Source of the DNA: a virus
Lineage: Duplodnaviria; Caudoviricetes
Direction: 5' to 3' (one strand)
DNA length: 35,734 nucleotides
Virus record (IMG/VR): IMGVR_UViG_3300002092_000108
Span: 1-35,734 of that record
The notes beneath the pieces were generated by a model. It worked only from the letters and a program-made list of their open reading frames with translations. It was not told where the DNA came from and made no database searches. A program made the translations under genes and the position numbers. Below, piece by piece: positions 10,356 through 35,734 of the stretch; within the stretch, counting starts at the first letter, position 1; the number at the start of each line of letters is the position of its first letter.

Positions 10356-11011
10356 AATACTTTAGACGTTACAGAGAATTAGATAGAGGTGAGTTTATAG
10401 TATGCTTCGCTGATACAGCAGCAGGTGGAATAGATTATTGTGCAGCACAGTTTCTTAGTAAAGATAAAGTTGATGTACCTATTATCTATCATGCTCAAAC
10501 AATAGCTACTGAGATGACCCCGGCATTACATCATGAACTAGAACGAATCTATGAAGCAACAGGTGTACAACCAGTTGTATGTTTCGAACGTAACAATGGT
10601 GGAGTATATGAATTAGAACGACTAGCAGGACTCAATCGCAATGGTAAGTACTTAATCTATCAAGAGAAGAAGAACGTAGGTTCAACTGATTCAACAGTAA
10701 GTACACCTAAACTAGGATGGACTACTAACTCAGCTACTAGACCTGTAATGCTATCAATGCTTAAAGATGCAATAGATACTAGATTACTTACAATCTATGA
10801 TCGACCAACTATCAATGAAATGTTTGCTTTCGTAGTAGTTCAGACCAGCAGTAGTTGGAAAGCTCAAGCCGAGAGTGGAGCGCATGATGATTTAATTATG
10901 AGTCTAGCCGGAGCATGGCAGATGTATCAAACAGAGGAACGACCAATCGATTACTCTAGAGTTACTATGCCAAGTGAAAAGCTCTTTGATTCAGATGGGT
11001 TTTATATATGA
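10352..11011 (+). CDS. terL: Terminase large subunit, RNase H-like nuclease half
   Basis: FADTA, FERN, GWTT and HDDLIMSLA motifs. Confidence 0.88.
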   Translation: MKYFRRYRELDRGEFIVCFADTAAGGIDYCAAQFLSKDKVDVPIIYHAQTIATEMTPALHHELERIYEATGVQPVVCFERNNGGVYELERLAGLNRNGKYLIYQEKKNVGSTDSTVSTPKLGWTTNSATRPVMLSMLKDAIDTRLLTIYDRPTINEMFAFVVVQTSSSWKAQAESGAHDDLIMSLAGAWQMYQTEERPIDYSRVTMPSEKLFDSDGFYI

Positions 11012-11319
11012 CAAAACAAGAAGCACTTAATCTTATCTCGGTTCAAATGGAACGCATGGAAGACTATGGACAGTTACAAGTATTCATTAAAAGACATGGT
11101 GGTCAGATAACAAGTATAGATACTAACTATACATCGACTATGAAGTTTACAGAGAAAGACCCAAACGTAGTAGCAGTAAGTAACATACTAACTCTGTTTA
11201 AAGCTGCAACTGCATCAAGTGAGTCTATTGGCAGGAAAACAACACTAGGATTTAACGTAATTATTGATGAGCATGGTCGAGCTAACATCATGCAAGTACA
11301 AGACTTTAAGAAACTATAA
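11008..11319 (+). CDS. Hypothetical protein (N-terminus reminiscent of DUF2292/YezD-like)
   Basis: ATGA overlap; helix followed by YGQLQVFIKRHGGQITSID beta-hairpin pattern. Confidence 0.6.
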   Translation: MTKQEALNLISVQMERMEDYGQLQVFIKRHGGQITSIDTNYTSTMKFTEKDPNVVAVSNILTLFKAATASSESIGRKTTLGFNVIIDEHGRANIMQVQDFKKL

Positions 11320-11528: not shown

Positions 11529-11591
11529 TGGTATAATGCGGACAACACTAGGACATGCCGATGTGATAACTCTAATTCGAGGTATCTGCAT
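11529..11591 (+). promoter_or_regulatory. Extended -10 promoter and SD-sequestering hairpin for the portal gene
   Basis: TGgTATAAT 11529-11537; hairpin 11561-11572/11579-11591 covers GAGGT. Confidence 0.55.
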
Positions 11592-13516
11592 TGGCTACTA
11601 AACAAAAAACTACAAATACAACTGACTCATCAACTTCTGAACTAATAAAGCAGAAGACTTCATCATGGAACTATACTGCTGTTATAAGGGCAACATGGCC
11701 AGACAAAGAACGATTACTAATTGGAAGACTGTCTGATTCTTATTCACTTAAATCTACAAGGTCACATGTTACTGATGCTCACCTATCTACTCTAGTATTC
11801 GAAAGACAACCTAGGGTTGCTTCACAATTACCTACTGGAAAAATCTATGCTCTATCTAGTGAAGATGATGGCGCTGCTTTACTAATGAATCTAATAATGA
11901 ATAAGTATGTATACAAGCATGCTAATTCACAATTCGACTTATTAACTAAGCTTCGCATGAGTGGAGTATATGCATCTGCATATGGTGCTCAACCTATACT
12001 CTATGACTACAGAATAGATGACGAATACATTGGTCCAGACTGTTGGTTAATACCAATACGAAACTTCTATCCTCAACCTGGAAAGAATGACATTCGTGAT
12101 ATGGACTGGGCAATGGTATCAAAGATAGAATCAGTCTCATTCTTGGAAGCTATTACCAAAAGGAAGAACACCAAATGGAATACGAAGAACATCCAGACGT
12201 TGATCGACGAGTTAAAGACAGGTGGAAGCCCATCACGAGACCTAAACAGCGACAGAAAGTCAGCCGTAGAAAACCTAAGAAATAACGGAACACCTTACCA
12301 AGATAAAGATAATGGAGTACGAGTAGAACTTGTTACTAAGTATGAAAAGGGAACAACTGGAAGATGGATAACATTTGCTCCTGATTACCCAGAAGTAGGC
12401 AAGCTTAGAGATATACCTAACCCTCACAAGTCAGGTCAGATACCTATTGTTATGAGACAGTGTTTCCCATTACTTGATTCACCTTATGGACTCGGTGACT
12501 TTGAACGTGGTATTACTCTCCAGAAAGCTAAAGACTCACTAATTAACTTATACCTAGATGCAGTTAAACTATCTATATTCCCACCACTTAAAGTAGACCT
12601 AGCTAATGTAACAGCATCAACAATTAGACAAGAAGCCGGTGCTAGATGGCTAATGAAAGACCTTAATGCAGTAGCTCCTTATCAGACATCACCAGTAGGC
12701 ATGGAAACATTCCAAGGTACTTATCAGTTCCTTACTACAGCATTACTTAATCAGAATGGTACAACAGATACATCAGTTAGTAGTGCAGATGGTGGTAACC
12801 CAGCATATGGCAAGACACCACAAGCAATTGCAGCTTTACAGCAAAGAGAAAATGCACGAGATAACTGGGATAGATTCATGTTAGAGAAAACTATGGAAGA
12901 CCTATTCGAGGGTATGATTAATCTTATTGGTGAGAACCAAGAGAAGCCTATTAACTTCCATTTATTCGATGATGACATTAAAACAGTAGAAGACCAGTTC
13001 GATGAAGATGATCTAAAAGGATTCATGAAGAAAGTAAACAGTAGAGTAGCTAAGGTTACTATACCTAAGAGTTTAATTGGTGGTCAGTATAAGTTCTGCA
13101 TTGATGCATCATCCAGCATGAGTAAAGACGAAGAAGCACAAGATGCTGCTCTAACTGAAATCATTACATTCTACCTACAAGGCCAACAGATGATTGACCA
13201 AGCATTACAACAAGATGGTATGAAGTTCAACTTAGCCCAAGCATTCAAAGCTAAAGTTATTAACTCAGGTATTCAAGACTGGGATGACATCATTGAAGAC
13301 CATAGTGATGACGAACAAGGTGAACAAGAACAAGGTATGCCAGGACAGCAACAACCACCAATGCAGATGCCACAGTTCCAAGACCCTAAGATTCAGCAAC
13401 TAGCACAGCAGATGTTTGGACAACAAGCTCAGGGACAACCATCACCACAACCTCAAACTATGCCACAACAACAAGCACCACAACAGCCTATGCAACCTAA
13501 TCAAGGGAGTTACTAA
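11591..13516 (+). CDS. Portal protein (P22-like) with Q/P-rich tail
   Basis: 641 aa; position after TerL; NFYPQP and PYGLGD motifs. Confidence 0.85.
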   Translation: MATKQKTTNTTDSSTSELIKQKTSSWNYTAVIRATWPDKERLLIGRLSDSYSLKSTRSHVTDAHLSTLVFERQPRVASQLPTGKIYALSSEDDGAALLMNLIMNKYVYKHANSQFDLLTKLRMSGVYASAYGAQPILYDYRIDDEYIGPDCWLIPIRNFYPQPGKNDIRDMDWAMVSKIESVSFLEAITKRKNTKWNTKNIQTLIDELKTGGSPSRDLNSDRKSAVENLRNNGTPYQDKDNGVRVELVTKYEKGTTGRWITFAPDYPEVGKLRDIPNPHKSGQIPIVMRQCFPLLDSPYGLGDFERGITLQKAKDSLINLYLDAVKLSIFPPLKVDLANVTASTIRQEAGARWLMKDLNAVAPYQTSPVGMETFQGTYQFLTTALLNQNGTTDTSVSSADGGNPAYGKTPQAIAALQQRENARDNWDRFMLEKTMEDLFEGMINLIGENQEKPINFHLFDDDIKTVEDQFDEDDLKGFMKKVNSRVAKVTIPKSLIGGQYKFCIDASSSMSKDEEAQDAALTEIITFYLQGQQMIDQALQQDGMKFNLAQAFKAKVINSGIQDWDDIIEDHSDDEQGEQEQGMPGQQQPPMQMPQFQDPKIQQLAQQMFGQQAQGQPSPQPQTMPQQQAPQQPMQPNQGSY

Positions 13517-14056: not shown

Positions 14057-14059
14057 GAT

Positions 14060-15954: not shown

Positions 15955-16037
15955 TCTGAACTGTTTGATGGTACATATTACATGTACAAAATGGGGTGGA
16001 AGGTGGCACCCTACCAAATTAACTAGGAGGAAAAATA

Positions 16038-17890: not shown

Positions 17891-18103
17891 ATGATTCAGA
17901 ATAACTCACACGGAAGTTACAAAGTACCTACTAAAGGAACTAAAGTATCAGTTAAAGTTGCACATCAAAACTCTATTATTGGTCAACCAGTAGTTGGTTC
18001 AAGCAATAGTGAGAACCACGCTAGAACTGTTAACTCTCCTCTTAAAGCCAAAAGAGTACATGGAACTAAGATGGTCAAGACTTCATCTGGAATCGCAATG
18101 TAA
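17891..18103 (+). CDS. Small basic hypothetical protein
   Basis: AAAGGA SD; TAATG coupling to the next gene. Confidence 0.6.
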   Translation: MIQNNSHGSYKVPTKGTKVSVKVAHQNSIIGQPVVGSSNSENHARTVNSPLKAKRVHGTKMVKTSSGIAM

Positions 18104-18543: not shown

Positions 18544-19282
18544 TCGCCAAAGCAAACCTTATACATATAGAACACAGCAAGAAATTGCTAACAATACTTA
18601 TGATGAACAATACAAGGTAGAGACTGTTGCTCCTTTGGGATACCGGACGGATATAGATTCATTCGTACCTTTGAATGTAGATGCATCTGGTAACCTCAAT
18701 GTAACAAGTACAGGCGGTGGTGGAGGAGGTACTCAGTACACCGATGGTTCTTCAACAATAGCTCATCCAATAGGAACAATACCTGTTTATGATAAAGCAG
18801 GAACAATCACAGCAGTTTCAGTAGCCAACCCACTTCCAGTAAGTGCAACAATTTCTACAGCAGGACTTGCTACCTCTACAATTCAAACAGATGGCACACA
18901 GAAGACACAAGTAACTTCACTACCAGCTTTACCTACAGGAACTAACGCTATAGGTTCTATAACTAATACTACCTTTGCTAGTACACAGTCTGGTACTTGG
19001 AACACTGGTACACCATCAGCCACAATTAACATAGGTCAAACAACCTCAGCAGTAACAGCAACCCAACTTACAGCATCATCTATTGCTATGACTAATGGCG
19101 TAGTTATACAGGCTCTTTCTACTAACACAGCATCAGTATTTATCGGCAACTCAGGTGTAACTACGGCCAACGGATTTGAACTAACTGCGGGTTCTTCACT
19201 TACAATCTCACCAAGCAATATCAACCTTGTATATGTAATAGGTACTAATGCAACAGATAAAGTTTGCTGGAGCGTAACATGA
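18530..19282 (+). CDS. Virion fibre/decoration protein
   Basis: T/S/G-rich; VDASGNL, NPLPV and LPTGTNAIG motifs; C-terminal beta-sandwich-like region. Confidence 0.7.
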   Translation: MATPNRQSKPYTYRTQQEIANNTYDEQYKVETVAPLGYRTDIDSFVPLNVDASGNLNVTSTGGGGGGTQYTDGSSTIAHPIGTIPVYDKAGTITAVSVANPLPVSATISTAGLATSTIQTDGTQKTQVTSLPALPTGTNAIGSITNTTFASTQSGTWNTGTPSATINIGQTTSAVTATQLTASSIAMTNGVVIQALSTNTASVFIGNSGVTTANGFELTAGSSLTISPSNINLVYVIGTNATDKVCWSVT

Positions 19283-21699: not shown

Positions 21700-21700
21700 A

Positions 21701-21928
21701 ATGACTATAGATGATTTGGTAAACTTCACTTATAAAATAGATGGAGATATAGTTCAAATACTTACTAGTTTTAAAAACGTTTATTCGCTTACAACATCAC
21801 AAGATGCAGATGGTAATGAAGTTCAAGATTTAATGATTGCAAGTTGGAGTGTTCCTGCAAGTGAAATAGAAGGTATGGAAGATCCTACAGATTACCTAAA
21901 ACAAGTAATTGTAACCGCTAACTCGTAA
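21701..21928 (+). CDS. Small acidic protein (possible fibre chaperone)
   Basis: Immediately follows the fibre gene. Confidence 0.6.
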   Translation: MTIDDLVNFTYKIDGDIVQILTSFKNVYSLTTSQDADGNEVQDLMIASWSVPASEIEGMEDPTDYLKQVIVTANS

Positions 21929-21957
21929 ACGCTTGCAAATAAGTGTATAATATGGTC

Positions 21958-22533
21958 ATGAGTATAAATAATAAACCTACATTTGCTGATGCACTTATAA
22001 ATTTAATTTCAAGTACTTTTAAGACTTACTTGCCAGTAATAATTCTTGTATTAATAGGCATAATTGGTGGTGTTTTCTATCGAAACTATGAAGCTAATCG
22101 TTCTTTAGAGAGAAATAGACAATTATCTGCAACTATTTCAAATCCTGATTTATTTAATTCAGACCAATTCAATGGTTGGATGTTTGCTGAACGAATTAAT
22201 AATCATGTACGATTATCTTTTGATAATAAAAAACTAGACATTTTGGCTCAATCAGAAGCTGAATATTTAAAAGCTAATTCAAATATTCCAGATAGTACTT
22301 CAACTCAACAGAAGATTATTCAAGCAGTCGGCCCAGTTTTATATTATGGTCAAGACCATGATACTATATGTTCTTACACAACAAATGCTGATGAAGAATT
22401 ACGTTTCAAAAACAACAAAGTACTTTATAGTAATATGATTGATTACAATATTAATGCGTATGGAGTTGGTTATGTAGCTCCAGACAAAGGATCATGTAAT
22501 GGTTACTTTGTTATAGATTTTGCAGGATTATGA
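21958..22533 (+). CDS. Membrane-anchored degenerate CAP/SCP-like protein (moron)
   Basis: One TM helix, then R..L..D.KL..LAQ..A and NMID...YGVGY...VIDF pattern; own TATAAT at 21946-21951. Confidence 0.6.
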   Translation: MSINNKPTFADALINLISSTFKTYLPVIILVLIGIIGGVFYRNYEANRSLERNRQLSATISNPDLFNSDQFNGWMFAERINNHVRLSFDNKKLDILAQSEAEYLKANSNIPDSTSTQQKIIQAVGPVLYYGQDHDTICSYTTNADEELRFKNNKVLYSNMIDYNINAYGVGYVAPDKGSCNGYFVIDFAGL

Positions 22534-22624
22534 TATAATGTGGGGTAACGACAGGGACACGCCCTAACGGCCTTACTCTTATCAAAGAATAGGCACTTTC
22601 CAATAAACCGGGAGGTGCTTTTTT
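22531..22624 (+). promoter_or_regulatory. Late promoter plus UAC/AU hairpin and overlapping terminator (copy 1)
   Basis: TGaTATAAT 22531-22539; GCCT-TAC-TCTT-ATCA-AAGA-AT-AGGC 22570-22594; terminator 22591-22624. Confidence 0.7.
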
Positions 22625-22659
22625 AGTTTCTCCCTTAAAACTTCTTAGGAGAAAACAAA

Positions 22660-23703
22660 ATGAATCCCGTAGTAAATCTAATTAATCATCCTCAAATAGC
22701 TAATCCAGGTTCAGTTGCTCAAACTGCAACAGGACAGGCAGTTTATCCATCAACAGGAACACCAGATCAAATATTCCCATCCTCACAAAATAATAATATA
22801 ACTAATAACACCCCTGCCAACAATGGTGCAGTAGCAGGTGGAGGTGGTGGTGGAGGTGCATCTGGTTCAACTTACAACCCTGCAATCGCTAATGCAATTA
22901 ATCAGAATTATGCTGAACAACAAAGAGGTTATCAAGCCTTATTAGACCAACTAGATCCAAACTACCAAGCCAACACAGGTTTTGTAGGTAATCAATACAA
23001 TAATCAGAACCAAACGTTACAAGACCAATACAATGCTGGACTAAACTCTAATAAGTTAGCTAACGCACAATTAGAAACATCAAGAACTAATACTCTTAGA
23101 GATTTAACTCACCAAATGCAGGGAATGATTCAAGGCTACGGCAATCAACTCGGTACTTATGGGGCTGGTGATTCAAGCGCAGCTGGATTAATTAACTACG
23201 CTCTTACTAATCAAGGCAACAGAAGCATTAATGATGCTAACCAACAAGCCGCTTATCAACAAACTGGATTGAACAATCAATCAGATAATTTACAAAAACA
23301 ATACGAAGATCAGTATGGTGCGCTTAATAACTGGAGAGATCAATCACTTTCTCAGCTTGCTCAAGCATACGATTTATATAAACAACAATATCAAAATGCA
23401 ATTACTGGTTCACAAACTCAGCAAAGCCAGATGTTGGCTTCTTATGGTGCTCACCCTGATTCAACACTTCTTAATGCACTTCAGAACTTGGATAAATCAT
23501 ATACAAATGCAAAAGCTAATTTAGATAATACCTATACTCAAGCTTCTCCCGGCGTTGATTTATCTCAGTACAATTCTTTTGCGGTTAACCCAATAACTCA
23601 ACAACAATTACAAGGTGCTAACTTTACACCAGTTCAAACTCAACCTGTAAATGCTCCAGTATCAATAAGACGTACAACTGACCAAACTCAACAAGGATTG
23701 TAA
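22660..23703 (+). CDS. Putative DNA ejection/internal virion protein
   Basis: Q/N/A-rich coiled coil with a Gly-rich hydrophobic patch; podovirus gene position. Confidence 0.65.
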   Translation: MNPVVNLINHPQIANPGSVAQTATGQAVYPSTGTPDQIFPSSQNNNITNNTPANNGAVAGGGGGGGASGSTYNPAIANAINQNYAEQQRGYQALLDQLDPNYQANTGFVGNQYNNQNQTLQDQYNAGLNSNKLANAQLETSRTNTLRDLTHQMQGMIQGYGNQLGTYGAGDSSAAGLINYALTNQGNRSINDANQQAAYQQTGLNNQSDNLQKQYEDQYGALNNWRDQSLSQLAQAYDLYKQQYQNAITGSQTQQSQMLASYGAHPDSTLLNALQNLDKSYTNAKANLDNTYTQASPGVDLSQYNSFAVNPITQQQLQGANFTPVQTQPVNAPVSIRRTTDQTQQGL

Positions 23704-26700
23704 TGGGATTATTTGATTCGCTAGGTAACTGGTTCAAAAAAGAACTAGATATAGGGCAGCCTGCATCAGCACCTGCTCCTCAACCTAGTGCTTCTTCACA
23801 CCCTCAAAGCTTACCCGGATTATCTGTTCAGCCATTGCAGAATCAACCAAGTTTTAATATTGCACCTCCACCAAGTCCTAATCCTATAACTGTTGCCCCC
23901 CCAAGTCCAACACCTCAAGCTCCACCAGTTCATACTAATTTCTTCAACCCTTTTTTCCATCAGCTTAATCAAGCTGCTAACGGAGCTGTATCTGATTTAA
24001 AAGATATTGGTGATTTAGGTGCGCTAGGTGTTGCTAATCTTACAAATAACCAACAAGCCGCCAACAATGCTCGTAATGCCATCGGCAACAACAATGCCAA
24101 CCTTGATACAAAAAACTTTGCAACTAACTTAGGTGGACTTAGTCAGGATGTATTAGTAACACCTGCTGCCAAAGCTTATATTAATACTGGTGCCGGAATC
24201 GCAACAGGTATAGTTAATGGACTAACTGGCCAAAACCAAACATCACAAGAAGCAATAGGCGGTGGACCACTTGGAGGTATAACTAACTGGGCATCAAACA
24301 ATGGAACAGCTAATGAAGGTACAGCTCGCAATTTAGCAAGTAATGCAATTAATACAGGAATCAATTTACTAACACTAGGTAAAGGTAAAGCCATAGATCA
24401 AGCCGCTGAAGGTCTTATAGGAAACTATATACCTCAACTTGCAGAATCTGGATTAGGTAGAGCAGCACAAAGACTTGGTGGTAGCGAAGCCGTAGCAGGA
24501 CTATATGGCGCTGGAATGGGTGCATCTCAAGCTGCACAAAGTGCTAACAATATTAAAGAAGTTGGAACAGATATAGGTAAAGGCACACTACAAAACTTAC
24601 CATTTGGAATACTTGGTGTATTACCTAACGCTGCTCATGGTCTAGTAAATACAGCCAATAAAGTAGCTGATTCAACCCCGGCAATAATAAATCAAACCAG
24701 ACAATTAGTAGCCGACCAAGGTGGTCACATTGGATTTAACAATGTTGCAGATAATCACCCAGCAGTAATACAACTTAATGACCATTTAGATACTCTTAAT
24801 AAGTTAAGAGATAATATGACTCAAAATGGATTAGATGAACGTAATCCAGCAATGGTAAACAATGCTAAGGCATACCAAGCTACATTAGATGAACTTAACA
24901 ACACTAGAAATGCTATTACTCAGGGTGGCTACGTTAAAGTACGTGGAACACCAGAACCTACTCCAGAAGCCCCACAAGTAGGCGTAATAAACGAAATTAA
25001 ACAAGCATTTGGAAATCGCAAACTTACCGATAAACAGTTATATGGTGATTCAATGATAAAAAGTACATATAAAGGCAAACCAATAACTACCAATGCATTT
25101 ATGTTAGAGTTTTCTGATGTTCCATACAAAGAAGGTTTTGGAAAAGTTACAAAAGCTATTGATAAGAAATCTGCACCGATTATGGAAAAAGTACTTGCTG
25201 GAAAAGACAACCCTCAGACACAACTTACACCAGTATCTAAATCAGACCAGTTCGTAAATCTTACGGGTGGTAATAATTCAGTAGTCTTAAAAGGTAAGTA
25301 CGTTACTCACATGTATCAGAAATATGGTAATGATATTACATTCCATTCCGATAATCCGCTTGACCCAGTATTTGTAAGAAAGAATGGTGAAAATGTTGGC
25401 ATCATCATGCCAGTTAAAGAGAATGCTAAGAACAACATAAACTTTAAACCACTACAAACGGCACAAGAAATACCTACCCCCGCCCCACAAGTAGGTAAGA
25501 ATGTAAACCAACCTACATCCACACCAGTAAATACTAGTAACAATCCTAATAGTTTTAAAGTAGCAGAAAGAGATGGAACACAACAACAGGTAGATTTTAA
25601 AACAAGTAGATCTGGTAAACAAACAGTAGAAAGATCTATGGTTAATCCAGAGGGCAATTATTTCATAGAAAGTATGCCACTTGATAAAGCAACTAAAAAG
25701 TTTGGTACTTCTGATCCAGAAACTATTGCTAATCTATTGGTAGATGGGGAATTTAACCCACAATCCGAACAGTGGGAAGCTAAAGGTAGGACAGTAAATA
25801 ATGAACAACCAACTACTACTGAATCTAATGTAACCGAAAGGAAAGGTTATAATGTATATACAAATAAAGACGGTAGTCAAACTTATATACCTAAAGCTGA
25901 AAATAATAGACAGACCACTACCCCAGCCCCACAAGTAGGTAAGACACCACAAGTTGAACCACCTGTCACCAAACCCGAACATTCAATTATAGTTAGCGAA
26001 ACTAAGCCTATGCCAGATGGTAGCAAGATTGTTATTAAAGCCGGTCGTGACCCTAATACAGGTATGACTATTAAATGGGAAGAACGAGTAGATAAGAATA
26101 CAGATAAGGCTATCAATATCTCTAAATCAAAGACAGGTGATGATTTAAGTAATCCACAAAACTACGCTGATACTTTCGGAGTAACAAAACAACAAGCAGA
26201 AAAAGACTTCAAACAGATGCGTGAAGAAGACTTAACGCCTCCTAATAACCTAATCAATAACGAACCTCCAAAACTAACTGTTCAACAAAAGCGTGAGATT
26301 ATACAAGAAAATCCATACCAACAAACAAAGAATCAAGTTGAACTTAATCCTCAAGAAGGTAACGTTAAAGGTGCAATAGCTCAAGCAACAGGTAAAGCAG
26401 CTGAAAGAGATAGAAGACTATTAGATGCTGAGAAACTTGTAAATAAACTAACCCCAGAAGATAAAGAACTTCTATATAGGTATGATGATGGTGAGAAATT
26501 ATCTAATGTATTAAAAGATGCTAAAGAACCAGCTAAACTTGAACAGGCTATCAAGGCTAACGATGATGCGTTTGACTACCATCTTTCGTTAGATAGGGCA
26601 GCAGGTGGTGCTACATTAAGACAAAACAACTATACATTCCCTAAGTTCTTCCAATTACCAGAAGAAAAGATGGATGAGTTAGGTATACCAGAAAATCAAC

Positions 26701-29444
26701 GGTTTACTAATGGTGAATATAGAGGATTCCACGATACTTCTTCTAAGTATAAATCTTACCTAGATGCTGAAAGACAAGCAGGACTTAAACCTCTTTATGA
26801 TAATCCAGCAGATGCAATTAAGACTTACCGAGAAACAGGTTCAAGATCATTGAGAAATCAAGCTTTATTCACAGCACTTTCAAAAGCAGCCCCTATGGAC
26901 GTTGCTGATCTAGGTATTACTCATGACTCAGAAGGTAGACGTTTCTCTCAGGCAGCAGGGAACTTACCGTTCTCAGTAACGGATGACCTACAGAACCGAC
27001 TTAAAGCATTCAGACAAGCATATAAACCTGAGACAAAAGCTGGACAACTAGCATTACAAGCAGGTGAAAAAGTAGGTATCGCTTCTAAGGGTATGACGTT
27101 CTTACTATCTCCTGTTCACTATGCTAACGTAGGAACTAACTTCTTCGGTGCAACAGGAATTACAGGGCATGGCTTTACTCTTGTAAAAGGTTTCGGAGGT
27201 GGTATAGTCTCAATCTCTAATAAGGGATATGGAATGATGCTTGATCACTACAAAGCTAATGGAACTCTAGACTGGGCTAATAACGCAGGGCTTAAGTTAA
27301 GTGGTCATGGTGCATTAGGACGATACACTGATTCTCTAGGACTATCTCTAGCAGACTTAGCACGAAGTAAAGGGATAGACTCAACTTCTCAAGGTGGTGT
27401 AGATCTAGCAGCCGAATATAACAAAGTAATGGGTCATAAAAACTACACAGTAGAAGGGACTAGCCCTAATACTCTCGCTATAGGGCGTAATACTCTCTTG
27501 GCTCAGAACTGGACACCTTCACAATTAGCAATCTTAAAAGATGCAGGTATTAAGTGGGAAAAGAACTCTAGAGGTATTGGACTTCTTAACCCAGGAGACA
27601 CAGCTAGAAGTGCAGTCTTTGGAAAGAGATTAACTGAAGCAACAGCAGCTATTATCCTTTCAGCTATTGCTACAGGACAAGCACCTCATCTTAAAGACTT
27701 AATTAACGAAGCGGGGCTAAATCCTAACAACCCAGTTCCAAATATTCAAACTAATTCAAAAGATTCTAAAGGTAGGAAGTGGGTAATTGATATGCCTACT
27801 GATCCTATTGGTTTAGCAGCAGGACTTGTAACAGACCCTAAGCATTTCTTACAGTCAAGAGAAAGTCCTATTTTAGGAACAGCTACACGTTTAATAACTA
27901 ATCAGAACTGGAATGGACAACAAATAGCAGATATGTCTCAACCTGGTGCATGGCCTAAGAGAATAGAAGGTTCAGTTAAAGGGATGCTTCCTATTTCACT
28001 TCAGAATGCTACTAATCCTAGTTTAAGTATTAAACAGGGTCTTCTTCAAGATGTAGGCTTCCGTTATAAGTCAGATCCTAACGATCCTCAAAACGTGGCT
28101 ACTAAACAACACTTTGATGACCAAAAAACATATGAAGATTTAATTAAGTCAGGCAAGTGGAGTCAAATCCCTGGTAGTAATCTTCAAGATGTTTCACCAC
28201 AAGAGGGACTTAGAATATTTAATGATCAATACTCAAGAGCTAATGTTGCATCAACTAAAGATATAAATGGCAACACGATTCCTGGCGACTGGAATGCACT
28301 TAGTAACGAAATAAAAGCTGCAACATATTTACAAAATGACCAAAAGACTGGCAAGCAAACATTATCTCCTACATTTTTCGCTGCCCAAGCATTATCTAAT
28401 TCACAACCTAATAGACCTCATAGTCCACTATTCGATTTACAAGGAAGTGGTGTTGGTTTCACGCTAGATGATAAAGGCAACATTATTGGAACTAAAGATT
28501 TACCTAAAGCTCAGGTTGCAATAGCTTATTCAAATATGCCACCCGGCGACCCACAAAGATATTTAGTTGAACAAGCTAATCCATGGATGAAAGATTACTC
28601 TAAAGCTATGGGTGATTATTCTAATAACTATCAACAGAATATGACTAACTACATGCAAAATGAAGGCTGGAATGAAAGCGCTATAAATCAATACTGGCAA
28701 AAGCATCCATCTTCGACATCTCCAATAGCTTATCCTCAGATACCTCAGTCTACTACCGATATTATGAACAACTATGATTCTATTACCGACCCAACTGCTA
28801 AAGCTGAATATTTTGTAAACAATAAAGACGCTTTAACTCCAGCATTTAATGCAATAGCTAAATACCAAAATCAATCAAGAACTGCTAAAGGTGATTTACC
28901 GCTTCAGACTTATCCTGAAGCAACACCAGAAGTAGCAGGACTATTGGCACAATTACAAAAGAATCCAAATCACGACAAATCAATAAGTGCCGCCAACTCA
29001 ATTTTGATTAAAAATAACCCAGTATTAAATCAATACTTAGCCGACATAGGAGTTTATGGTACAACTAAAGACTTATCTAAGTATCTATATCAAAATCCAT
29101 CTTATCCTGGTATGACTCAAGGTCAATTACTAAACAATGGAGATAACCTTGCTCAATCAACACTTAAAGGCATATCAAACCTTGCTAGTTATGACATTGG
29201 CAAGAATGCTAATGGTCAGTATTCATTCATGCAAAACGGATCACTAGGTAATGGTTATAGCTCATCATCAGGTAGTGGTTCAACCAAACACAAAAAGATA
29301 TACATGAAGACTAAACGAATTAAAATCCGCAAAGCTCATATACGACCACCACACATAAGACCAGTATATGCTCAGAATAAGACTTACAAAGGGCCACTCA
29401 AAATATCTCGACCTAATAAGGTCAACGAGCAACAGTTGGCGTAA
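23703..29444 (+). CDS. Giant putative ejection/polyvalent virion protein (1913 aa)
   Basis: Gly/Ala-rich membrane-like N-terminal region, modular centre, basic C-terminus. Confidence 0.7.
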   Translation: MGLFDSLGNWFKKELDIGQPASAPAPQPSASSHPQSLPGLSVQPLQNQPSFNIAPPPSPNPITVAPPSPTPQAPPVHTNFFNPFFHQLNQAANGAVSDLKDIGDLGALGVANLTNNQQAANNARNAIGNNNANLDTKNFATNLGGLSQDVLVTPAAKAYINTGAGIATGIVNGLTGQNQTSQEAIGGGPLGGITNWASNNGTANEGTARNLASNAINTGINLLTLGKGKAIDQAAEGLIGNYIPQLAESGLGRAAQRLGGSEAVAGLYGAGMGASQAAQSANNIKEVGTDIGKGTLQNLPFGILGVLPNAAHGLVNTANKVADSTPAIINQTRQLVADQGGHIGFNNVADNHPAVIQLNDHLDTLNKLRDNMTQNGLDERNPAMVNNAKAYQATLDELNNTRNAITQGGYVKVRGTPEPTPEAPQVGVINEIKQAFGNRKLTDKQLYGDSMIKSTYKGKPITTNAFMLEFSDVPYKEGFGKVTKAIDKKSAPIMEKVLAGKDNPQTQLTPVSKSDQFVNLTGGNNSVVLKGKYVTHMYQKYGNDITFHSDNPLDPVFVRKNGENVGIIMPVKENAKNNINFKPLQTAQEIPTPAPQVGKNVNQPTSTPVNTSNNPNSFKVAERDGTQQQVDFKTSRSGKQTVERSMVNPEGNYFIESMPLDKATKKFGTSDPETIANLLVDGEFNPQSEQWEAKGRTVNNEQPTTTESNVTERKGYNVYTNKDGSQTYIPKAENNRQTTTPAPQVGKTPQVEPPVTKPEHSIIVSETKPMPDGSKIVIKAGRDPNTGMTIKWEERVDKNTDKAINISKSKTGDDLSNPQNYADTFGVTKQQAEKDFKQMREEDLTPPNNLINNEPPKLTVQQKREIIQENPYQQTKNQVELNPQEGNVKGAIAQATGKAAERDRRLLDAEKLVNKLTPEDKELLYRYDDGEKLSNVLKDAKEPAKLEQAIKANDDAFDYHLSLDRAAGGATLRQNNYTFPKFFQLPEEKMDELGIPENQRFTNGEYRGFHDTSSKYKSYLDAERQAGLKPLYDNPADAIKTYRETGSRSLRNQALFTALSKAAPMDVADLGITHDSEGRRFSQAAGNLPFSVTDDLQNRLKAFRQAYKPETKAGQLALQAGEKVGIASKGMTFLLSPVHYANVGTNFFGATGITGHGFTLVKGFGGGIVSISNKGYGMMLDHYKANGTLDWANNAGLKLSGHGALGRYTDSLGLSLADLARSKGIDSTSQGGVDLAAEYNKVMGHKNYTVEGTSPNTLAIGRNTLLAQNWTPSQLAILKDAGIKWEKNSRGIGLLNPGDTARSAVFGKRLTEATAAIILSAIATGQAPHLKDLINEAGLNPNNPVPNIQTNSKDSKGRKWVIDMPTDPIGLAAGLVTDPKHFLQSRESPILGTATRLITNQNWNGQQIADMSQPGAWPKRIEGSVKGMLPISLQNATNPSLSIKQGLLQDVGFRYKSDPNDPQNVATKQHFDDQKTYEDLIKSGKWSQIPGSNLQDVSPQEGLRIFNDQYSRANVASTKDINGNTIPGDWNALSNEIKAATYLQNDQKTGKQTLSPTFFAAQALSNSQPNRPHSPLFDLQGSGVGFTLDDKGNIIGTKDLPKAQVAIAYSNMPPGDPQRYLVEQANPWMKDYSKAMGDYSNNYQQNMTNYMQNEGWNESAINQYWQKHPSSTSPIAYPQIPQSTTDIMNNYDSITDPTAKAEYFVNNKDALTPAFNAIAKYQNQSRTAKGDLPLQTYPEATPEVAGLLAQLQKNPNHDKSISAANSILIKNNPVLNQYLADIGVYGTTKDLSKYLYQNPSYPGMTQGQLLNNGDNLAQSTLKGISNLASYDIGKNANGQYSFMQNGSLGNGYSSSSGSGSTKHKKIYMKTKRIKIRKAHIRPPHIRPVYAQNKTYKGPLKISRPNKVNEQQLA
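24969..25944 (+). repeat. Three intragenic direct repeats GCCCCACAAGTAGG (APQVG)
   Basis: 24969-24982, 25482-25495, 25926-25939; copies 2 and 3 match at 26/27 nt. Confidence 0.85.
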
Positions 29445-29457
29445 GTCAATATAGATA

Positions 29458-29521
29458 TGATATAATGTAGTCTAGGTTACTGAATACCAAATCAATACCT
29501 CTGCATTAGCAGGGGTTTTTT
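29458..29521 (+). promoter_or_regulatory. Late promoter plus UAC/AU hairpin and overlapping terminator (copy 2)
   Basis: TGaTATAAT 29458-29466; AGGT-TAC-TGA-8 nt-TCA-AT-ACCT 29474-29500; terminator 29497-29521. Confidence 0.72.
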
Positions 29522-29541
29522 ATTTTAAAAAGGAAAACAAA

Positions 29542-30264
29542 ATGGCAGTTGCATCATATACACTTCAAACAATCCAAGACCGAATACATGTCTTAGTTGA
29601 AAACGACCCTAACACACCACCATCAACTGATGATGAATGGGCTGTACGATACCAGCTTATAAGACAGGCTGTAAACAACTGGGAATCTGAAGATGTAAAC
29701 TGGAACGAATTATGGTCAAGATATACTATGACTGCTACTGTTACAGCCGGACAGACTTCTTATTCATTACTTACTGAACTACCAGACTTTAACCAAGTTG
29801 GTTCTTTTGTTAAGTTTATTACTCCCGGAACTAATAGCTACTCTTATGTAGAAGTCGTTAACCCTGCCGATATGACTAAGTACCAAGACAACTCTATTAA
29901 AGTATTCTTTACTGGTGATACAGGAAACGGATATACATTGAACTTAGGCTGGACTCCAGTAGCAGGTGATGCATTCGTTGGTTCGCAAATATCATTCATG
30001 TACTACAAGAGTGCATCTAACCCTGCTTCTGTTGCCGATGTTACTTGGTCACCACAGATGAGTAACCCTGATTACATTACTTTCTGGGCTGCAGCACAAA
30101 AGCATTTAATGGATGGCAATACTAATCAGTACAGTGTATTTTCTGGACTTGCTCAAGAAAACATGGACAAGATGAAAACATTTAACGAAGTCCGACCAAT
30201 CAACTCTGACATGCGCATGGATGATGTTGAACTTATTAAAGATAATAGTTCGTTCGGAGCTTAA
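29542..30264 (+). CDS. Head-tail adaptor-like protein
   Basis: Helix-beta-helix layout, LPDF motif, position before the nozzle. Confidence 0.65.
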   Translation: MAVASYTLQTIQDRIHVLVENDPNTPPSTDDEWAVRYQLIRQAVNNWESEDVNWNELWSRYTMTATVTAGQTSYSLLTELPDFNQVGSFVKFITPGTNSYSYVEVVNPADMTKYQDNSIKVFFTGDTGNGYTLNLGWTPVAGDAFVGSQISFMYYKSASNPASVADVTWSPQMSNPDYITFWAAAQKHLMDGNTNQYSVFSGLAQENMDKMKTFNEVRPINSDMRMDDVELIKDNSSFGA

Positions 30265-30267
30265 ACC

Positions 30268-32280
30268 ATGCCTGTACGATCTGCTCCCACACTCAAAGGT
30301 AGCGATGGCAAACCTTTTACTATCACCATAAATGAATTTAAGGGTGGTAACATTACACTTCTTGATGAATCAAGACTACCTAATACTGCTGTAACAATAT
30401 CTCAGAACATGATGCTAGACCAAGATGGTGTATGGCGTACTAGAGATGGTTCAAAAAGCTATGGTAAGACACTTGTTGGTCCAATAGAGGGCTTATCTGA
30501 TACTGTTGTTGTTTACAATTCTGACGGAACTAATACCAACTATGTTTTCGTAATGGACAATGGTTCTGTTAAATACTCACAAGATGGTGGAACATGGACT
30601 ACTATTGCTGGAAGAACATGGACAACAGGCTATACAACTACATTTAAGCAAATAGCATCAAGGCTTTATGTTACGAATGGTAAGGAAACTCTGTCTTATA
30701 TAGACCTTACTACAATGTACATTAAGATATATACTCCTCTATCTACTCCATCAGCACCAACATTGGCTAAGACAGGATTAGCTGGAAGCACCTATACTTA
30801 TTATTATAAGATTACTGCTGTAAATAATCAGATTGGTGAAACTGCCGCTTCCGCTGAAGCAAATATTGCTGTAGGTAAGCAAAGAATAATGATAAGTTCA
30901 ACTACTGCTAACTGGACTAGTGGTACAGACTCTGTAACATTAAGTTGGCCAGCCGTAACTAATGCTGATTCATATAACATATATATTTCAGACCAAACAG
31001 GACAGGAAGTTTATTTAGATTCAGTCAATAATACAAACTTGAGTTATACAGATACAGGCACACAATTACCAAATATTTACCAAGTCGCTCCTCCTACTGA
31101 CGGAACTTCCGGTCCAACAATATCTCAAACAGAATTATCTGGTAACAGAATATGGGGTACTGGTGATTCAGCCAATCCTTACCGAATAGTATGGACAGGA
31201 ACAGGCCAATACTTAGGTTCATTCAACCCTTACTTTGGTGGAGGTTATATTGATTTAGAAAAAGGTGGTGCTGAACATCCAGTAAGCGTCAAACACTTTA
31301 GAGATGGTAAAGGAAACGCTGTTGCAGTAGTCCTAACTTCTAATCCATCTGGAGGTGGTTCAAGGTGGTTTATTACTCTCACAACTCTCACAGTCGATAG
31401 TTTATCTATAGTTGTACCTCAAGCTACTAAAGAAGGTAACATTGGTACAGCATCACCTAGAGGTGTAGTAGTAGCTAATAACAATGTTTACTATCCATCA
31501 GTAAAAGGCTTCCAAAGCTTAGGTTCAACTCAGAACATACTTAACGTACTTCAAACTACTGAGATATCTGCTAACATCCGACCTACAGTCAGAAACTTAA
31601 CTAACTCAGCTATGAGTAAGATATGTGGCTTCTATTACTATGGTCGTATTTATTGGTCAGTACCTTATGGATCAACAACTAATAACCAAACTTGGGTACT
31701 AGACTTAGAACGTGGGGCATGGTGTCAGTACTGGAGCATTGGAGTAAAGCAATTTGCTGAATATACTGATTCATCTGGAACAATCCACTTACTTGCCATA
31801 CCTGTAACCGGAACTAACTTAATAGAGTTTAGTTCAACATATCAAGGTGATTCAGGTATACCATTTAACATAGACTTGGAATCAGGTTTAATTTCATGGG
31901 ATAAAGACCATTCACTATGGGCTAGAGTCGATAAAGTATATGTAGAACTTGGACACCCTAAGGGCAATATTAACTTTGCTATCTCAGGAACTCAAAAGAG
32001 TAAATCACTTGCACTACTTAAATCAATCAGTATTACAGATACTATTAGTACATCTGGAGTTGGTTCTGACTTAGTTGGTGACTTTATTATTGGTGATACC
32101 GGTGGCATCCCAGTTACTTACTCACAGTCTAGTGTTAAGAAAAGACTATTAGTCCGAAAGAGACTTAATAATATGAAATGGACACTTACTTCATCAGACA
32201 TCAATGCATCATTTACACTTCTCGAAGTTGTTATTAAGGGCAAAATCTTACCAACATCGGATCCGAGTCTTTGGAAGTGA
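30268..32280 (+). CDS. Tail nozzle/stabilisation protein (beta-propeller, P22 gp10-like position)
   Basis: FKGG...N..LDQDG...R.G N-terminus; beta-rich; FN3-like insert YYYKITAVN. Confidence 0.72.
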   Translation: MPVRSAPTLKGSDGKPFTITINEFKGGNITLLDESRLPNTAVTISQNMMLDQDGVWRTRDGSKSYGKTLVGPIEGLSDTVVVYNSDGTNTNYVFVMDNGSVKYSQDGGTWTTIAGRTWTTGYTTTFKQIASRLYVTNGKETLSYIDLTTMYIKIYTPLSTPSAPTLAKTGLAGSTYTYYYKITAVNNQIGETAASAEANIAVGKQRIMISSTTANWTSGTDSVTLSWPAVTNADSYNIYISDQTGQEVYLDSVNNTNLSYTDTGTQLPNIYQVAPPTDGTSGPTISQTELSGNRIWGTGDSANPYRIVWTGTGQYLGSFNPYFGGGYIDLEKGGAEHPVSVKHFRDGKGNAVAVVLTSNPSGGGSRWFITLTTLTVDSLSIVVPQATKEGNIGTASPRGVVVANNNVYYPSVKGFQSLGSTQNILNVLQTTEISANIRPTVRNLTNSAMSKICGFYYYGRIYWSVPYGSTTNNQTWVLDLERGAWCQYWSIGVKQFAEYTDSSGTIHLLAIPVTGTNLIEFSSTYQGDSGIPFNIDLESGLISWDKDHSLWARVDKVYVELGHPKGNINFAISGTQKSKSLALLKSISITDTISTSGVGSDLVGDFIIGDTGGIPVTYSQSSVKKRLLVRKRLNNMKWTLTSSDINASFTLLEVVIKGKILPTSDPSLWK

Positions 32281-32284
32281 TAGT

Positions 32285-32384
32285 TTGTCACTAACACAAC
32301 TTATGATATAATGACATTAATACGGCTAACGCTGTAGGTTACTGACGAACAAGTCAATACCACCTTGAAAGAGGTGGTTTTTTT
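32285..32384 (+). promoter_or_regulatory. Late promoter plus UAC/AU hairpin and overlapping terminator (copy 3)
   Basis: TTGTCA-16 nt-TATAAT; GGT-TAC-TGAC-6 nt-GTCA-AT-ACC 32337-32361; terminator 32359-32384. Confidence 0.72.
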
Positions 32385-32409
32385 ATTTCAAAAATAAAGG
32401 GATTACATT

Positions 32410-34272
32410 ATGGCAGCATCTGCAACAGATCTATTTAGAAAAATTACTAACAACTTTAGTACAACATTAACTTCAAGCATTGGCTCAGGTGATGTAACAC
32501 TATCACTAGCGAGTGTAACTAACTTACCAACTGACACAGCAATTGATTTAGTAATCGATAGAGTAGATTCAACAGGTACAAAGACTCCAACTAAAAGAGA
32601 ATATGTACTAGGTGTTGTATCTGGTTCAAACCTTATTAGCGTAGTTCGTGGAAAAGGTAACTCAACAGCACAAGCTCATGCATCAGGTGCGGTAGTTGAA
32701 TATGTTTTTGACCAAGATGTACACAATGACTTAGTAACAGGTGTACGAAACTCAATGAATCAAGATGGTTCACTTATTGGTTCTGCTGTACGAACAGCTT
32801 TAAATCAAACTGCAGCAACAGGTGCAGGATGGACAACTCTTGGCTATACACCTAATACAGTAGTCTACAATGGCAACCGCTCTTATACTTGTACAATTAA
32901 CGCTATAGATGCTACAGGAACACTCTCTCCTGGTATGCGTATTCAAACTACTAGAACAGTAGCAGCCCCAACCCAATCTACTTCCCTTAATGGTACTACT
33001 CAGTATTACTCTAAATCTTCACCAGCAGGAATGACCTTCACTAATAACTTTGTAGTAAGTGCTTGGGTGAAATTAACGAGTTATGCTACGAGTGGCAACA
33101 ATACTACCATTGCGTCTCGCTATAATGGCACAAGTGGCTGGCGTCTTAATCTAGACTCCAACGGACAGATTTATCTTCAAGGATTCAATGCTGGATCTGC
33201 TAACTTTAGCTATGTTAGGAGCTACCAGTCCGCACCACTTAATAAATGGGTTCATATTACAGCTCAGTTAGATATGTCTACATTTACGGCTACGACTACC
33301 ACGAGCTATATCATGATTGATGGTGTCGATATTCCATGTTTAGTCCAGCGTGGGGGTACTAACCCAACTGCTCTAATTCAAGCTGGTAACTTAGAAATTG
33401 GTTCAGCAAATGCCATCGACTTCTTCTCTGGCAAAATAGCTCAAGTAGCTATCTACAACGCTAAAGTAACTCAAGCTAATATTGTTGCTACAATTTCTCA
33501 AGGTCTTTCAGGCTCAGAAACATCTCTCATCTCTGCCTACTCTTTCAACAACTCTATAAACGACCTTAACACTACCAATGCTAACAACCTTACAGCTAAT
33601 AATGGTGCAGTAGCTACAGCGTCAGATACACCATTTACGACTACACAGGCTTTAACTGGTTATACAGTAGGCACAACTAACTTTGCAGAAGTAATATCGA
33701 TATCATATTCAACTAATACAACTTTAGTAGTTAAAGCTTCTGAAAGTGATACTTTGCCTACCACTGGTGGAATAAATGCTTTGTCATATTCGGCTCAATA
33801 CGAACCTTTTGCTTATCCTAATCAAGATTCTTTAAAAACTACAGCAATTTATAATCCTTATAAGTTTAGTGTATACGCTAATGCAAATCAAACAATTGTT
33901 ACAAACACTAATACTAAAATAAACTTAAATGCAAAAACTTTTGACACTAGTAATAATTTTGATACAACAACTAATTATCGTTTTACAGCTCCAGTTCCTG
34001 GTTTTTATTATTTCACAGCTTGTGTTTATATAACTGCTACTACTTCTTATATTATTCCTTTTTTATATAAAAATAATCTAAACGTATTACAAGGAACTAC
34101 AAATTATGGTGCGGCTGGACAAGATCAGCAAGTTACAGTAACAGGATTATTGCAATTAACTGCAAATGATTACGTTGAATTATTTGTTGTTCAATATAGT
34201 GGAAGCAACAAAACTACTTTAGGTTCATCATATGTTACATATATGCATGGTTATTTAGTGAGTGCCACATAG
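32410..34272 (+). CDS. Tail fibre/receptor-binding protein with LamG-like and C1q-like domains
   Basis: LamG motifs FVVSAWVK, KWVHI and FSGKIAQVAIYN; C1q motifs FD..NNFD...RFTAPVPGFYYF and L.ANDYVEL. Confidence 0.85.
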   Translation: MAASATDLFRKITNNFSTTLTSSIGSGDVTLSLASVTNLPTDTAIDLVIDRVDSTGTKTPTKREYVLGVVSGSNLISVVRGKGNSTAQAHASGAVVEYVFDQDVHNDLVTGVRNSMNQDGSLIGSAVRTALNQTAATGAGWTTLGYTPNTVVYNGNRSYTCTINAIDATGTLSPGMRIQTTRTVAAPTQSTSLNGTTQYYSKSSPAGMTFTNNFVVSAWVKLTSYATSGNNTTIASRYNGTSGWRLNLDSNGQIYLQGFNAGSANFSYVRSYQSAPLNKWVHITAQLDMSTFTATTTTSYIMIDGVDIPCLVQRGGTNPTALIQAGNLEIGSANAIDFFSGKIAQVAIYNAKVTQANIVATISQGLSGSETSLISAYSFNNSINDLNTTNANNLTANNGAVATASDTPFTTTQALTGYTVGTTNFAEVISISYSTNTTLVVKASESDTLPTTGGINALSYSAQYEPFAYPNQDSLKTTAIYNPYKFSVYANANQTIVTNTNTKINLNAKTFDTSNNFDTTTNYRFTAPVPGFYYFTACVYITATTSYIIPFLYKNNLNVLQGTTNYGAAGQDQQVTVTGLLQLTANDYVELFVVQYSGSNKTTLGSSYVTYMHGYLVSAT

Positions 34273-34284
34273 GAATTAAATAAT

Positions 34285-34506
34285 ATGACAAAACAAGAAA
34301 CTGAAAGACTCGCAATTGTGGAAACAAACCAAAATAACATGTCAAACGATATGCAGGAAATGAAAAACGATATCAAAGAGATTAAAAGATTGCTTACTCA
34401 TGCTGATGATAAATATATATCTAAGCACTTCAGCAAATGGGTAGTTGGAGTCAGCATCAGTATTGGAACACTAATAGCTTTCATCTGGACTGCTTTAAGG
34501 AAATAA
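34285..34506 (+). CDS. Coiled-coil plus C-terminal TM protein (XhlA/holin-like)
   Basis: ERLAIVET coiled coil with one TM; lysis module. Confidence 0.65.
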   Translation: MTKQETERLAIVETNQNNMSNDMQEMKNDIKEIKRLLTHADDKYISKHFSKWVVGVSISIGTLIAFIWTALRK

Positions 34507-34507
34507 T

Positions 34508-34759
34508 ATGTCTAAAAATATACAGTCAATGCTATTTTCTAAAGCATCAATAGCAGTACATAGTATATGGTTTTTTATCTGGCTAGTATTTCAGTTAAAC
34601 ATTAACTTGCTGACCTTAATAGTTTCTCTTGAAGCTATATACATCACTCTTTTTATAGGACTTGAACAACGCAATTTACATCAGGTTATGAAATCTCATA
34701 AGCCTGTAATGTCAAAGCTTGTTCGAGATATTAACAAGGTTATTAAAAGTAATAAGTAA
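34508..34759 (+). CDS. DUF1003-like membrane protein
   Basis: H.IWF.IW...LLTLIVSLEAIY.T.FI...Q pattern. Confidence 0.7.
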   Translation: MSKNIQSMLFSKASIAVHSIWFFIWLVFQLNINLLTLIVSLEAIYITLFIGLEQRNLHQVMKSHKPVMSKLVRDINKVIKSNK

Positions 34760-34769
34760 GGAGTTATGT

Positions 34770-35447
34770 ATGCAATATCAAGACTTTAAGAATGAGTGGA
34801 CTGGCAAGCGAGTAGATTACGACCATGTATATGGTTTCCAATGTGTCGATCTAATACTTGAGTATGTTAAAGAATGTTATGGATTGGCATCTGGCGTATG
34901 GGGCAATGCAATAGACTACTGGAATCACACTTCAGCACCATTACTAACTAAGTTCGACTTAGTACAAGGTTCACAAACTCAGCAAGGTGACATTGTTGTA
35001 CTTAATGGACTAGCCGGAAATCCTTATGGACATATAGGTATCGCAGATCACCAAGATGGTTCAGGTATCTGGTTATTAGAACAGAACGCTACAGGTTCAG
35101 GTGATGGACTAGGAAGAAGTGCTATTGGTGTATACCGAGCAATTCCTACTAATCGAGTAGCAGGAATCTTACGACCTAAGTCATCACCAACACCTCCACC
35201 AGCCCCAGCACCAGCAAGAGCGGAAGTAACTCTACCTGGTTCAGCACAAAGCTGGAGACTATACCGAGTAGGTTCAGGACTTCGACCAAATACTTCAGAC
35301 CAAATAGCTGTACTAGCACCACATCAATTCGGTGGACTTACTTACAAGATAGAAGCTTGGGTAGGAGATTACGCTGTAGTAATTCAAACTCAAATGTTTG
35401 GTCGAGGTGTTATATGGGTCAAGAATACAGAAGCAATAATTAATTAA
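34770..35447 (+). CDS. CHAP-domain endolysin
   Basis: QCVDL, GNAIDYW, YGHIGI and EQN; Pro linker and C-terminal putative binding domain; AAGGAG SD. Confidence 0.9.
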   Translation: MQYQDFKNEWTGKRVDYDHVYGFQCVDLILEYVKECYGLASGVWGNAIDYWNHTSAPLLTKFDLVQGSQTQQGDIVVLNGLAGNPYGHIGIADHQDGSGIWLLEQNATGSGDGLGRSAIGVYRAIPTNRVAGILRPKSSPTPPPAPAPARAEVTLPGSAQSWRLYRVGSGLRPNTSDQIAVLAPHQFGGLTYKIEAWVGDYAVVIQTQMFGRGVIWVKNTEAIIN

Positions 35448-35458
35448 AGGAGAAAGAG

Positions 35459-35632
35459 ATGCCAAAGGTAAGTAAAAGAATATTAGCAATCATGGACCCA
35501 GAAGAAAAAACTGAATCTATGAAAGAACGCAGAGCAGAAAAGAAAAACCCAGCAATGGAAGCAAAAGAAAAAAAACCAATGCAAAAGAAAAATTCTAATT
35601 TGATTAAAAAAATTATTAAAATTAACAAGTAG
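35459..35632 (+). CDS. Lys/Glu-rich small protein, 57 aa
   Basis: Manual ORF MPKVSKRILAIMDPEEK...; AAGGAG SD. Confidence 0.6.
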   Translation: MPKVSKRILAIMDPEEKTESMKERRAEKKNPAMEAKEKKPMQKKNSNLIKKIIKINK

Positions 35633-35643
35633 ATGGATAAGTT

Positions 35644-35734
35644 ATGATTGATGACCCTAAATTGCAAGAACTTGCACAATTTACACCAGAAGGAAAACTT
35701 ACTCCTGGTTATGGCGATGGATACTTATTTTATG
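35644..35734 (+). CDS. 3'-truncated hypothetical protein
   Basis: MIDDPKLQELAQFTPEGKLTPGYGDGYLFY, open to the window end. Confidence 0.5.
   Translation, partial: MIDDPKLQELAQFTPEGKLTPGYGDGYLFY

Follow-up and report, generated by a model that had tools for sequence, protein, structure and literature searches.

The DNA analyzed here, hereafter the window, is the whole 35,734-nt phage record IMGVR_UViG_3300002092_000108, which is near-complete (CheckV 97%) and derives from freshwater metagenomes. Terminase, capsid, SU10-type adaptor, fibre and CHAP endolysin genes were identified in it, and our subject is a leader that recurs before its ejection (22660), adaptor (29542) and fibre (32410) genes (Table 1). 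The adaptor was assigned by a Pfam SU10_adaptor match and the fibre carries LamG and C1q domains; the names ejection and nozzle (30268) are provisional, given from position and weak matches, and the two proteins of the first operon (347 and 1913 amino acids) had no family match. The initial annotation of this DNA had described a single layout of promoter, hairpin and overlapping terminator before all three genes, and every one of these elements was found in its place.

The promoter motif TGATATAAT is present at 22531, 29458 and 32304. Strain-level comparisons support the promoter calls at leaders 1 and 2: a related strain with unrelated upstream DNA (divergent from 22545) keeps TATAAT at the same 5-nt distance to leader 1, and in the leader 2 region, compared between two runs from a single study, the one strain difference in 221 nt sits at 29460, the unconstrained n of TGnTATAAT. 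All three window hairpins contain a U-UAC-U/A-AU-A internal loop, and they overlap their terminators by 4, 4 and 3 nt, respectively, when the U-tract pair is included, or by 2, 3 and 2 nt without it. The terminators (22591, 29497 and 32359) are the top three of 9 terminator-like sites within 18000-35734. By itself, a loose sequence motif is at chance level (30 matches vs 27.7 expected) and TGNTATAAT is mildly enriched (7 vs 3.4 expected, with 6 of 100 shuffles reaching 7). The full promoter-hairpin-terminator architecture is beyond chance: a generic descriptor recovered two of the three copies with their promoter, compared to 0.025 per shuffled window (40 shuffles), and copy 1 probably escapes it because its terminator stem is interrupted. 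None of the three leaders was matched by an Rfam covariance model at thresholds up to E=10.

Table 1 Features of the three leaders, the operons behind them and the candidate factor in the window.
Feature	Position	Strand	Basis or remark
Extended -10 promoter 1 (TGnTATAAT)	22531..22539	+	TGA doubles as stop codon of ORF 21943-22533
Accessory upstream hairpin P1, leader 1	22553..22565	+	folding; similar hairpin in G002 ejection leader
Putative antiterminator hairpin 1 (4 bp, UAC/AU loop, 4 bp)	22570..22594	+	folding
Intrinsic terminator 1, overlapping hairpin 1	22591..22624	+	z -4.5
Extended -10 promoter 2	29458..29466	+	motif; strain comparison
Putative antiterminator hairpin 2	29474..29500	+	folding, covariation
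Intrinsic terminator 2	29497..29522	+	z -5.2
Promoter 3, -35 TTGTCA and extended -10	32285..32312	+	11/12 consensus positions
Accessory upstream hairpin P1, leader 3	32321..32336	+	folding; covarying P1 in G001, G002
Putative antiterminator hairpin 3	32337..32361	+	folding, covariation
Intrinsic terminator 3	32359..32384	+	z -4.3
Operon 1, gated: 347-aa and 1913-aa proteins, likely ejection	22660..29444	+	position and size
Operon 2, gated: SU10-type adaptor and likely nozzle/tail protein	29542..32280	+	Pfam match for adaptor
Operon 3, gated: tail fibre (LamG, C1q), likely holin, CHAP endolysin	32410..35447	+	domain matches
Candidate antiterminator, 103-aa predicted tandem DUF2292/YezD-like protein	11008..11319	+	between terminase and portal genes
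Portal leader: promoter and hairpin with internal A burying ribosome-binding site and TTG start; no terminator	11529..11600	+	

Folding calculations place the hairpin and the terminator in mutually exclusive pairings. The hairpin is the preferred structure while the 3' arm of the terminator is untranscribed, and the complete terminator then beats it by 1.6, 6.8 and 4.5 kcal/mol in leaders 1, 2 and 3, respectively. A forced hairpin costs the terminator 3–4 base pairs beside the U-tract, and losing base pairs next to the U-tract should disable intrinsic termination. Since the terminator fold wins once complete, the default state is predicted to be off, with short leader RNAs of about 45-75 nt as the predicted default output; as the terminator is favored by 1.6–6.8 kcal/mol, read-through should need help.

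To place the leaders in a wider set, relatives (designated by G and L numbers) were gathered via the capsid, adaptor and nozzle proteins and read whole, and 25 promoter-plus-terminator leaders before ejection, adaptor or fibre genes, in 12 records, were chosen from a genome-wide listing. In 20 of these, the terminator is overlapped by a hairpin with a 3x(1-2) loop, compared to 1.71 expected when each leader is shuffled; the descriptor was written after inspection of the leaders, and the sampled phages are related. The G004 fibre leader, the G006 ejection and fibre leaders and both G008 leaders (5x2 loops) failed the descriptor. Base pairs were counted in a gap-free alignment of the 27-nt hairpins, which number 9 among the 18. 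Compensatory changes occurred at all 8 stem pairs, with 0 of 500 shuffles as high, and 91.7% of cells were paired vs at most 42% in slid controls. A covariance model further recovered one untrained copy (E=1), before the G007 ejection gene and at the predicted place.

The loop itself proved less constant than the initial annotation had it. Among the records compared, UAC/AU is invariant only in the window phage, G001 and G002; in the other relatives it is mainly the central A and the pairing that are kept. Their loops read CAC/AC, UAC/CC, UAC/GC, UUC/GC, xAA/AC, CAG/CA or CAU/AA, with A as the middle base in 17 of 21 hairpins; 2x1 intermediate forms occur in G003, G006, G013 and G440, and G008, which carries the ORF 11008 family discussed below, has a GA/A loop form in two leaders. 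The loop sequence varies between phages and is mostly common to the leaders of one phage, as expected for a phage-encoded partner.

An exact pattern scan of viral contigs returned 70 matches, none with the architecture, and a second pattern gave 4 of 95 matches with pairing and terminator (UAC/AU form), all in G001/G002. Nothing was found in a single-protein adaptor scan, and a scan of capsid clade B gave no further record with capsid and leaders together. The weak adaptor matches L096-L104, four of which were inspected, were dropped. In the distant relatives L120, L123 and L124, the adaptor and fibre leaders have a promoter and an asymmetric-loop hairpin beside the ribosome-binding site, without a terminator, and are possibly a translational version.

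From these sequence comparisons, we conclude that the leader element is a real, covarying and uncatalogued attenuator. The attenuator part of the earlier proposal, in which promoters are silenced by termination until antitermination occurs, is supported by covariation, recurrence before the same genes and terminator-favoring energetics.

Next, we considered which protein might open the leaders. A gene-content comparison left three small conserved candidates: open reading frames (ORFs) 11008, 13835 and 16038. Among the small ORFs named earlier, 11008 emerged as the best candidate, and 6567 and 16038 are both helix-turn-helix (HTH)-like and missing from some carriers; in G008 and G009, ORF 16038 was not observed downstream of the capsid gene. 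ORF 13835 was lowered because it is also present in G021/G022, which lack leaders. Spanning 13835-14056 between the portal and scaffold genes, it encodes a 73-aa zinc-like protein (H-x-W-x-Q-x-G...CxSC...H) with 317 clusters and no family match. It occurs in all close relatives and is better conserved than its neighbours, with the cysteines lost in G021/G022; its model (predicted local distance difference test, pLDDT, 81) had no Foldseek match at E<=0.001, a best VIA Z of 2.7 and no solved relative.

All 9 close relatives tested, a set that counts the window, have a homologue of ORF 11008, as does the distant phage G824; the family was undetected in G011, G012, G013, G014, G015, G016, G017, G018, G021 and G022. 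Promoter-linked descriptor matches were present in 8 of 10 carriers vs 1 of 10 non-carriers (Fisher p=0.0055, relatedness uncorrected), in a set that leaves out G005 (truncated twin of G006) and G010 (short fragment) and includes some incomplete or partly read records. Homologues weakly match PF10055 (DUF2292, domain of unknown function) at the N-terminal unit in G007 (E=3.3e-4) and G003 (E=0.014), reaching 15.9 and 11.5 bits where Pfam sets its cut-off at 22. The N and C halves of ORF 11008 both align with a single-unit phage protein (89% and 50%, respectively), and DUF2292 proteins of candidate phyla radiation (CPR) bacteria align with the N half at 59% and the C half at 2%. The AlphaFold model of ORF 11008 was poor (pLDDT 51), no PDB relative was found, and its Atlas matches were unnamed leads at 0.80.

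The mechanism that we favor, with moderate confidence, is that the ORF 11008 protein opens the leaders by binding the hairpin loop. Three times over, a consensus host-type promoter precedes a conserved hairpin with an internal loop, and the 3' strand of this hairpin is also part of the terminator base; the predicted tandem DUF2292-like protein, presumably made from the terminase operon, would likely bind the loop and hold the hairpin, so that RNA polymerase could proceed to the ejection, tail and fibre/lysis genes. Its two units may act as a fused pseudo-dimer reading the asymmetric loop around the central A. Antitermination would be local to each leader and not processive, and expression of the head-packaging genes would thereby license the later virion and lysis genes.

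Several observations weigh against this assignment. The window ORF 11008 protein has no Pfam DUF2292 match, its halves fail to align with one another (0.4%), and with 12 K+R and 11 D+E it has no overall basic character. Its gene lies 11–21 kb from the leaders, in contrast to the bacterial DUF2292 cases, which are adjacent to theirs. Loop type follows the ORF 11008 tree with rho 0.53 (p 0.059), and the capsid tree does at least as well. Relatedness among the phages confounds the co-occurrence of carriers and hairpins, and the records of several non-carriers are not complete. A gated leader is present in G013, which lacks the ORF 11008 family, and G004 has a homologue and passes neither descriptor. 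Finally, another small protein occupies the same gene position in G011, G012, G013, G014, G016, G017 and G018; comparison of the G013/G018 and G017 positional proteins with the ORF 11008 family by hhalign gave <1%, with no detectable homology, although the proteins of these seven non-carriers could be remote analogues. In G012 and G016, the different small protein stands before the portal gene.

Chromosomal DUF2292 loci of CPR bacteria offer what appears, from sequence, to be an independent test linking these genes with hairpin-terminator elements. Among 401 CPR genomes there were 10 DUF2292 matches, 7 of them above the Pfam cut-off. A stem-[RA/A]-CCG-loop-CGG hairpin follows 6 of the 10 genes (6 of the 7 above the cut-off), compared to 0.02–0.04 per shuffled locus, and at each of these loci (L328-L332, L334) the hairpin continues into a terminator-like stem. 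Read as 3x2, the loop is GAC/GA, with a long-strand N-A-C in common with the window UAC/AU. Two leaders of the carrier G008 contain this CPR-type GA/A form, and the 2x1 loops of G003, G006, G013 and G440 are intermediate. An Rfam scan of the 6 loci gave one chance-level miRNA match (24.7 bits vs 67). The phage-trained covariance model did not detect the CPR hairpins; the link between the CPR and phage RNA forms consequently rests on a shared descriptor, which matches 2 of the 10 CPR DUF2292 loci, and on inspection.

Four other explanations were weighed. The likeliest of them, though in our judgment improbable, keeps the RNA switch but takes as its ligand the major capsid protein or the product of a co-inherited gene (HTH-like 16038 or helical 16226), with tail and ejection genes turned on as capsid accumulates. 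Among 7 genes tested in 8 phages, the capsid tree is the best correlate of loop type (rho 0.56–0.62, Mantel p 0.003–0.005), a result that also tells against ORF 11008, but this correlation is driven by G008-G009 and its loop classes were partly defined after the tree was seen. These two phages, each with AAA/AC loops, are 72% identical in the capsid protein but only 29–46% identical in portal, ejection, adaptor, nozzle and fibre. Against this, G003 and G006 belong to the same capsid clade (69%) yet have dissimilar loops (0.10), gated leaders are absent from G021 and G022 despite their related capsids, and no 16038/16226 pair was observed downstream of the capsid gene of either G008 or G009. 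A capsid ligand would also leave the related hairpin beside chromosomal DUF2292 genes unexplained. As a separate observation, the tree of the capsid gene (15022-15954) conflicts with the portal, adaptor and nozzle trees (capsid identity 72% for G008-G009 and 67% for G013-G003), which points to exchange of the capsid module.

Slightly less probable still is that there is no switch at all, and that constitutively leaky terminators hold the output of minor virion proteins low, the hairpin tuning the leak or being an architectural C-loop. The folds of leader 1 are only 1.6 kcal/mol apart, distant relatives express the same genes without such terminators, and the loop size is compatible with C-loop geometry (PMC4551918). 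However, leakage would not call for a dedicated promoter 45–80 nt before each terminator, for conservation of an asymmetric loop around an unvarying A or for co-occurrence with one protein, and with the terminator complete the equilibrium population of hairpins 2 and 3 is negligible (P <=0.001).

We give a low probability to a gate that is opened by a factor of the host, either a chromosomal DUF2292 protein or some other protein that binds RNA, and that would signal the state of the host. CPR genomes do contain DUF2292 genes of the single-unit kind accompanied by a related hairpin (7 of 401 above cut-off), but the phage-type covariance model found nothing in 151 Saccharimonadales-order genomes (incomplete genomes, strict filters), and the loop differs between phages while being largely shared within one. 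Least probable of all is that the hairpin is a nut/put-like loading site from which polymerase becomes processively terminator-resistant, possibly via the zinc-binding-like ORF 13835 protein, whose conservation in all close relatives would suit such a role, because a promoter and overlapping terminator for each operon would be redundant under processive antitermination, and this protein is also found in the leader-less G021/G022, has a tree that does not track loop type (p 0.11–0.20) and lacks a fold match.

Summed over these readings, a protein-opened switch of some kind appears very probable. The action of the ORF 11008 protein, if it is the factor, may extend beyond the three leaders. The hairpin of the portal leader covaries in G001, G002, G006, G009 and L074, with a GA/A hairpin in G008, making it a possible fourth, translational target. 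More tentatively, and short of even odds, DUF2292/YezD proteins might be widespread unrecognized RNA-binding antiterminators, of which these CPR phages would encode a fused two-unit version that co-evolved with the asymmetric hairpin, acts in trans to open all three late attenuators and might bind the portal leader too, lowering portal translation: a one-protein RNA timer ordering head, tail and lysis expression.

A Saccharibacteria/CPR host is likely for the window phage, given that relatives of the nozzle gene at 31–33% identity were found in Saccharibacteria assemblies and that 4 of 401 genomes of the Saccharibacteria order (G017, G047, G140 and G584) gave matches at E<1e-90. In a phylum-wide sample, 2 of 401 genomes matched at E<1e-90, one being G017. 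The related phages that carry the leaders are probably phages of Saccharibacteria as well.

Other features were recorded along the window and its relatives. The terminase large subunit (9549-11011) consists of two overlapping ORFs (268 and 219 aa) and is split likewise in several relatives; in the near-identical L071, a 442-aa ORF sits between the two. At 2851-2940, upstream of the integrase region, lies a further TGnTATAAT promoter with a structured leader and a terminator, without the 3x2 loop. Stacked hairpins stand before the scaffold gene (14050-14150) and after the capsid gene (15955-16030), with their structure kept in relatives. The LamG domain of the fibre (32410-34272) also matches a clostridial receptor-binding Pfam model, which reflects a shared lectin fold and no toxin. 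In G006 (L137, post-capsid region), translations point to GroES/GroEL-like, glycosyltransferase-like and methyltransferase-like genes among the virion genes.

Late genes of known phages are switched on by a polymerase or sigma factor of the phage's own, by activators that bind DNA or by antiterminators that act processively. If our reading is true, a local switch resembling the ribonucleic antiterminator (RAT) and recurring ahead of individual virion operons would add to the means of timing late genes, DUF2292 would gain a testable function, and insight would be gained into transcription control in CPR phages, which are barely studied. The natural loop variants suggest orthogonal protein-hairpin pairs.

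Comparison with known systems places the leaders closest to the RAT elements of BglG/SacY/LicT, a parallel already drawn in the initial annotation. According to PMC5393181, these have two conserved internal loops, a 6–10 nt overlap and a CAT dimer under control of phosphotransferase system (PTS) phosphorylation. Shared with them are a weak internal-loop hairpin whose 3' end is shared with the terminator 5' arm, a promoter-proximal leader, an apical loop free to vary and a proposed hairpin-stabilizing protein (PMC5393181). In contrast, the phage hairpins have one loop instead of two and an overlap of 3–4 nt in the window (2–13 nt across relatives), and their targets are phage virion genes. There is also no CAT or PRD domain: none of the 52 window proteins had such a Pfam match at E<=0.05, a search that did not extend to host-encoded CAT proteins. 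The parallel thus holds for a hairpin overlapping a leader terminator, and membership of the RAT family does not.

The C-loop, as described in PMC4551918, has variants with a 3-nt long strand, a short strand with 0–2 bulged bases, C first and a U-A closing pair. The 3x2 loop of the window, the 3x1 or 3x2 loops of relatives and a CAA/CAC-like sequence in some are reminiscent of it. The phage hairpins differ in their first base (U in 14, C in 4, A in 2 and G in 1 of 21), in both closing pairs, which swap freely, and in several relatives that pair the third base with the short strand to leave a 2x1 loop. We found no description of the leader element in the literature; the motif catalogues PMC10690425, PMC8040213 and PMC5737381 (supplement) were outside the scope of this search and may hold it as an unnamed motif. 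DUF2292 was likewise not found described as an antiterminator or RNA-binding protein.

ORF 11008 may resemble DUF2292/YezD/OscA (PF10055) in having a helix followed by [FY]G and a beta hairpin, and CPR members of that family stand beside related hairpin-terminator elements; it differs in being about twice as long (a predicted tandem), in scoring below the Pfam cut-off and in lying far from its proposed targets. In lambda N/nut, lambda Q/qut and HK022 put, RNA polymerase is modified processively from one site. As the initial annotation had it, no CAT-domain, N or Q protein was recognizable among the window proteins, and no N or Q homologue was found there. The window phage has in common with these systems phage genes behind host-type promoters that are gated by termination, and differs from them in having three separate leaders, each with a competing hairpin.

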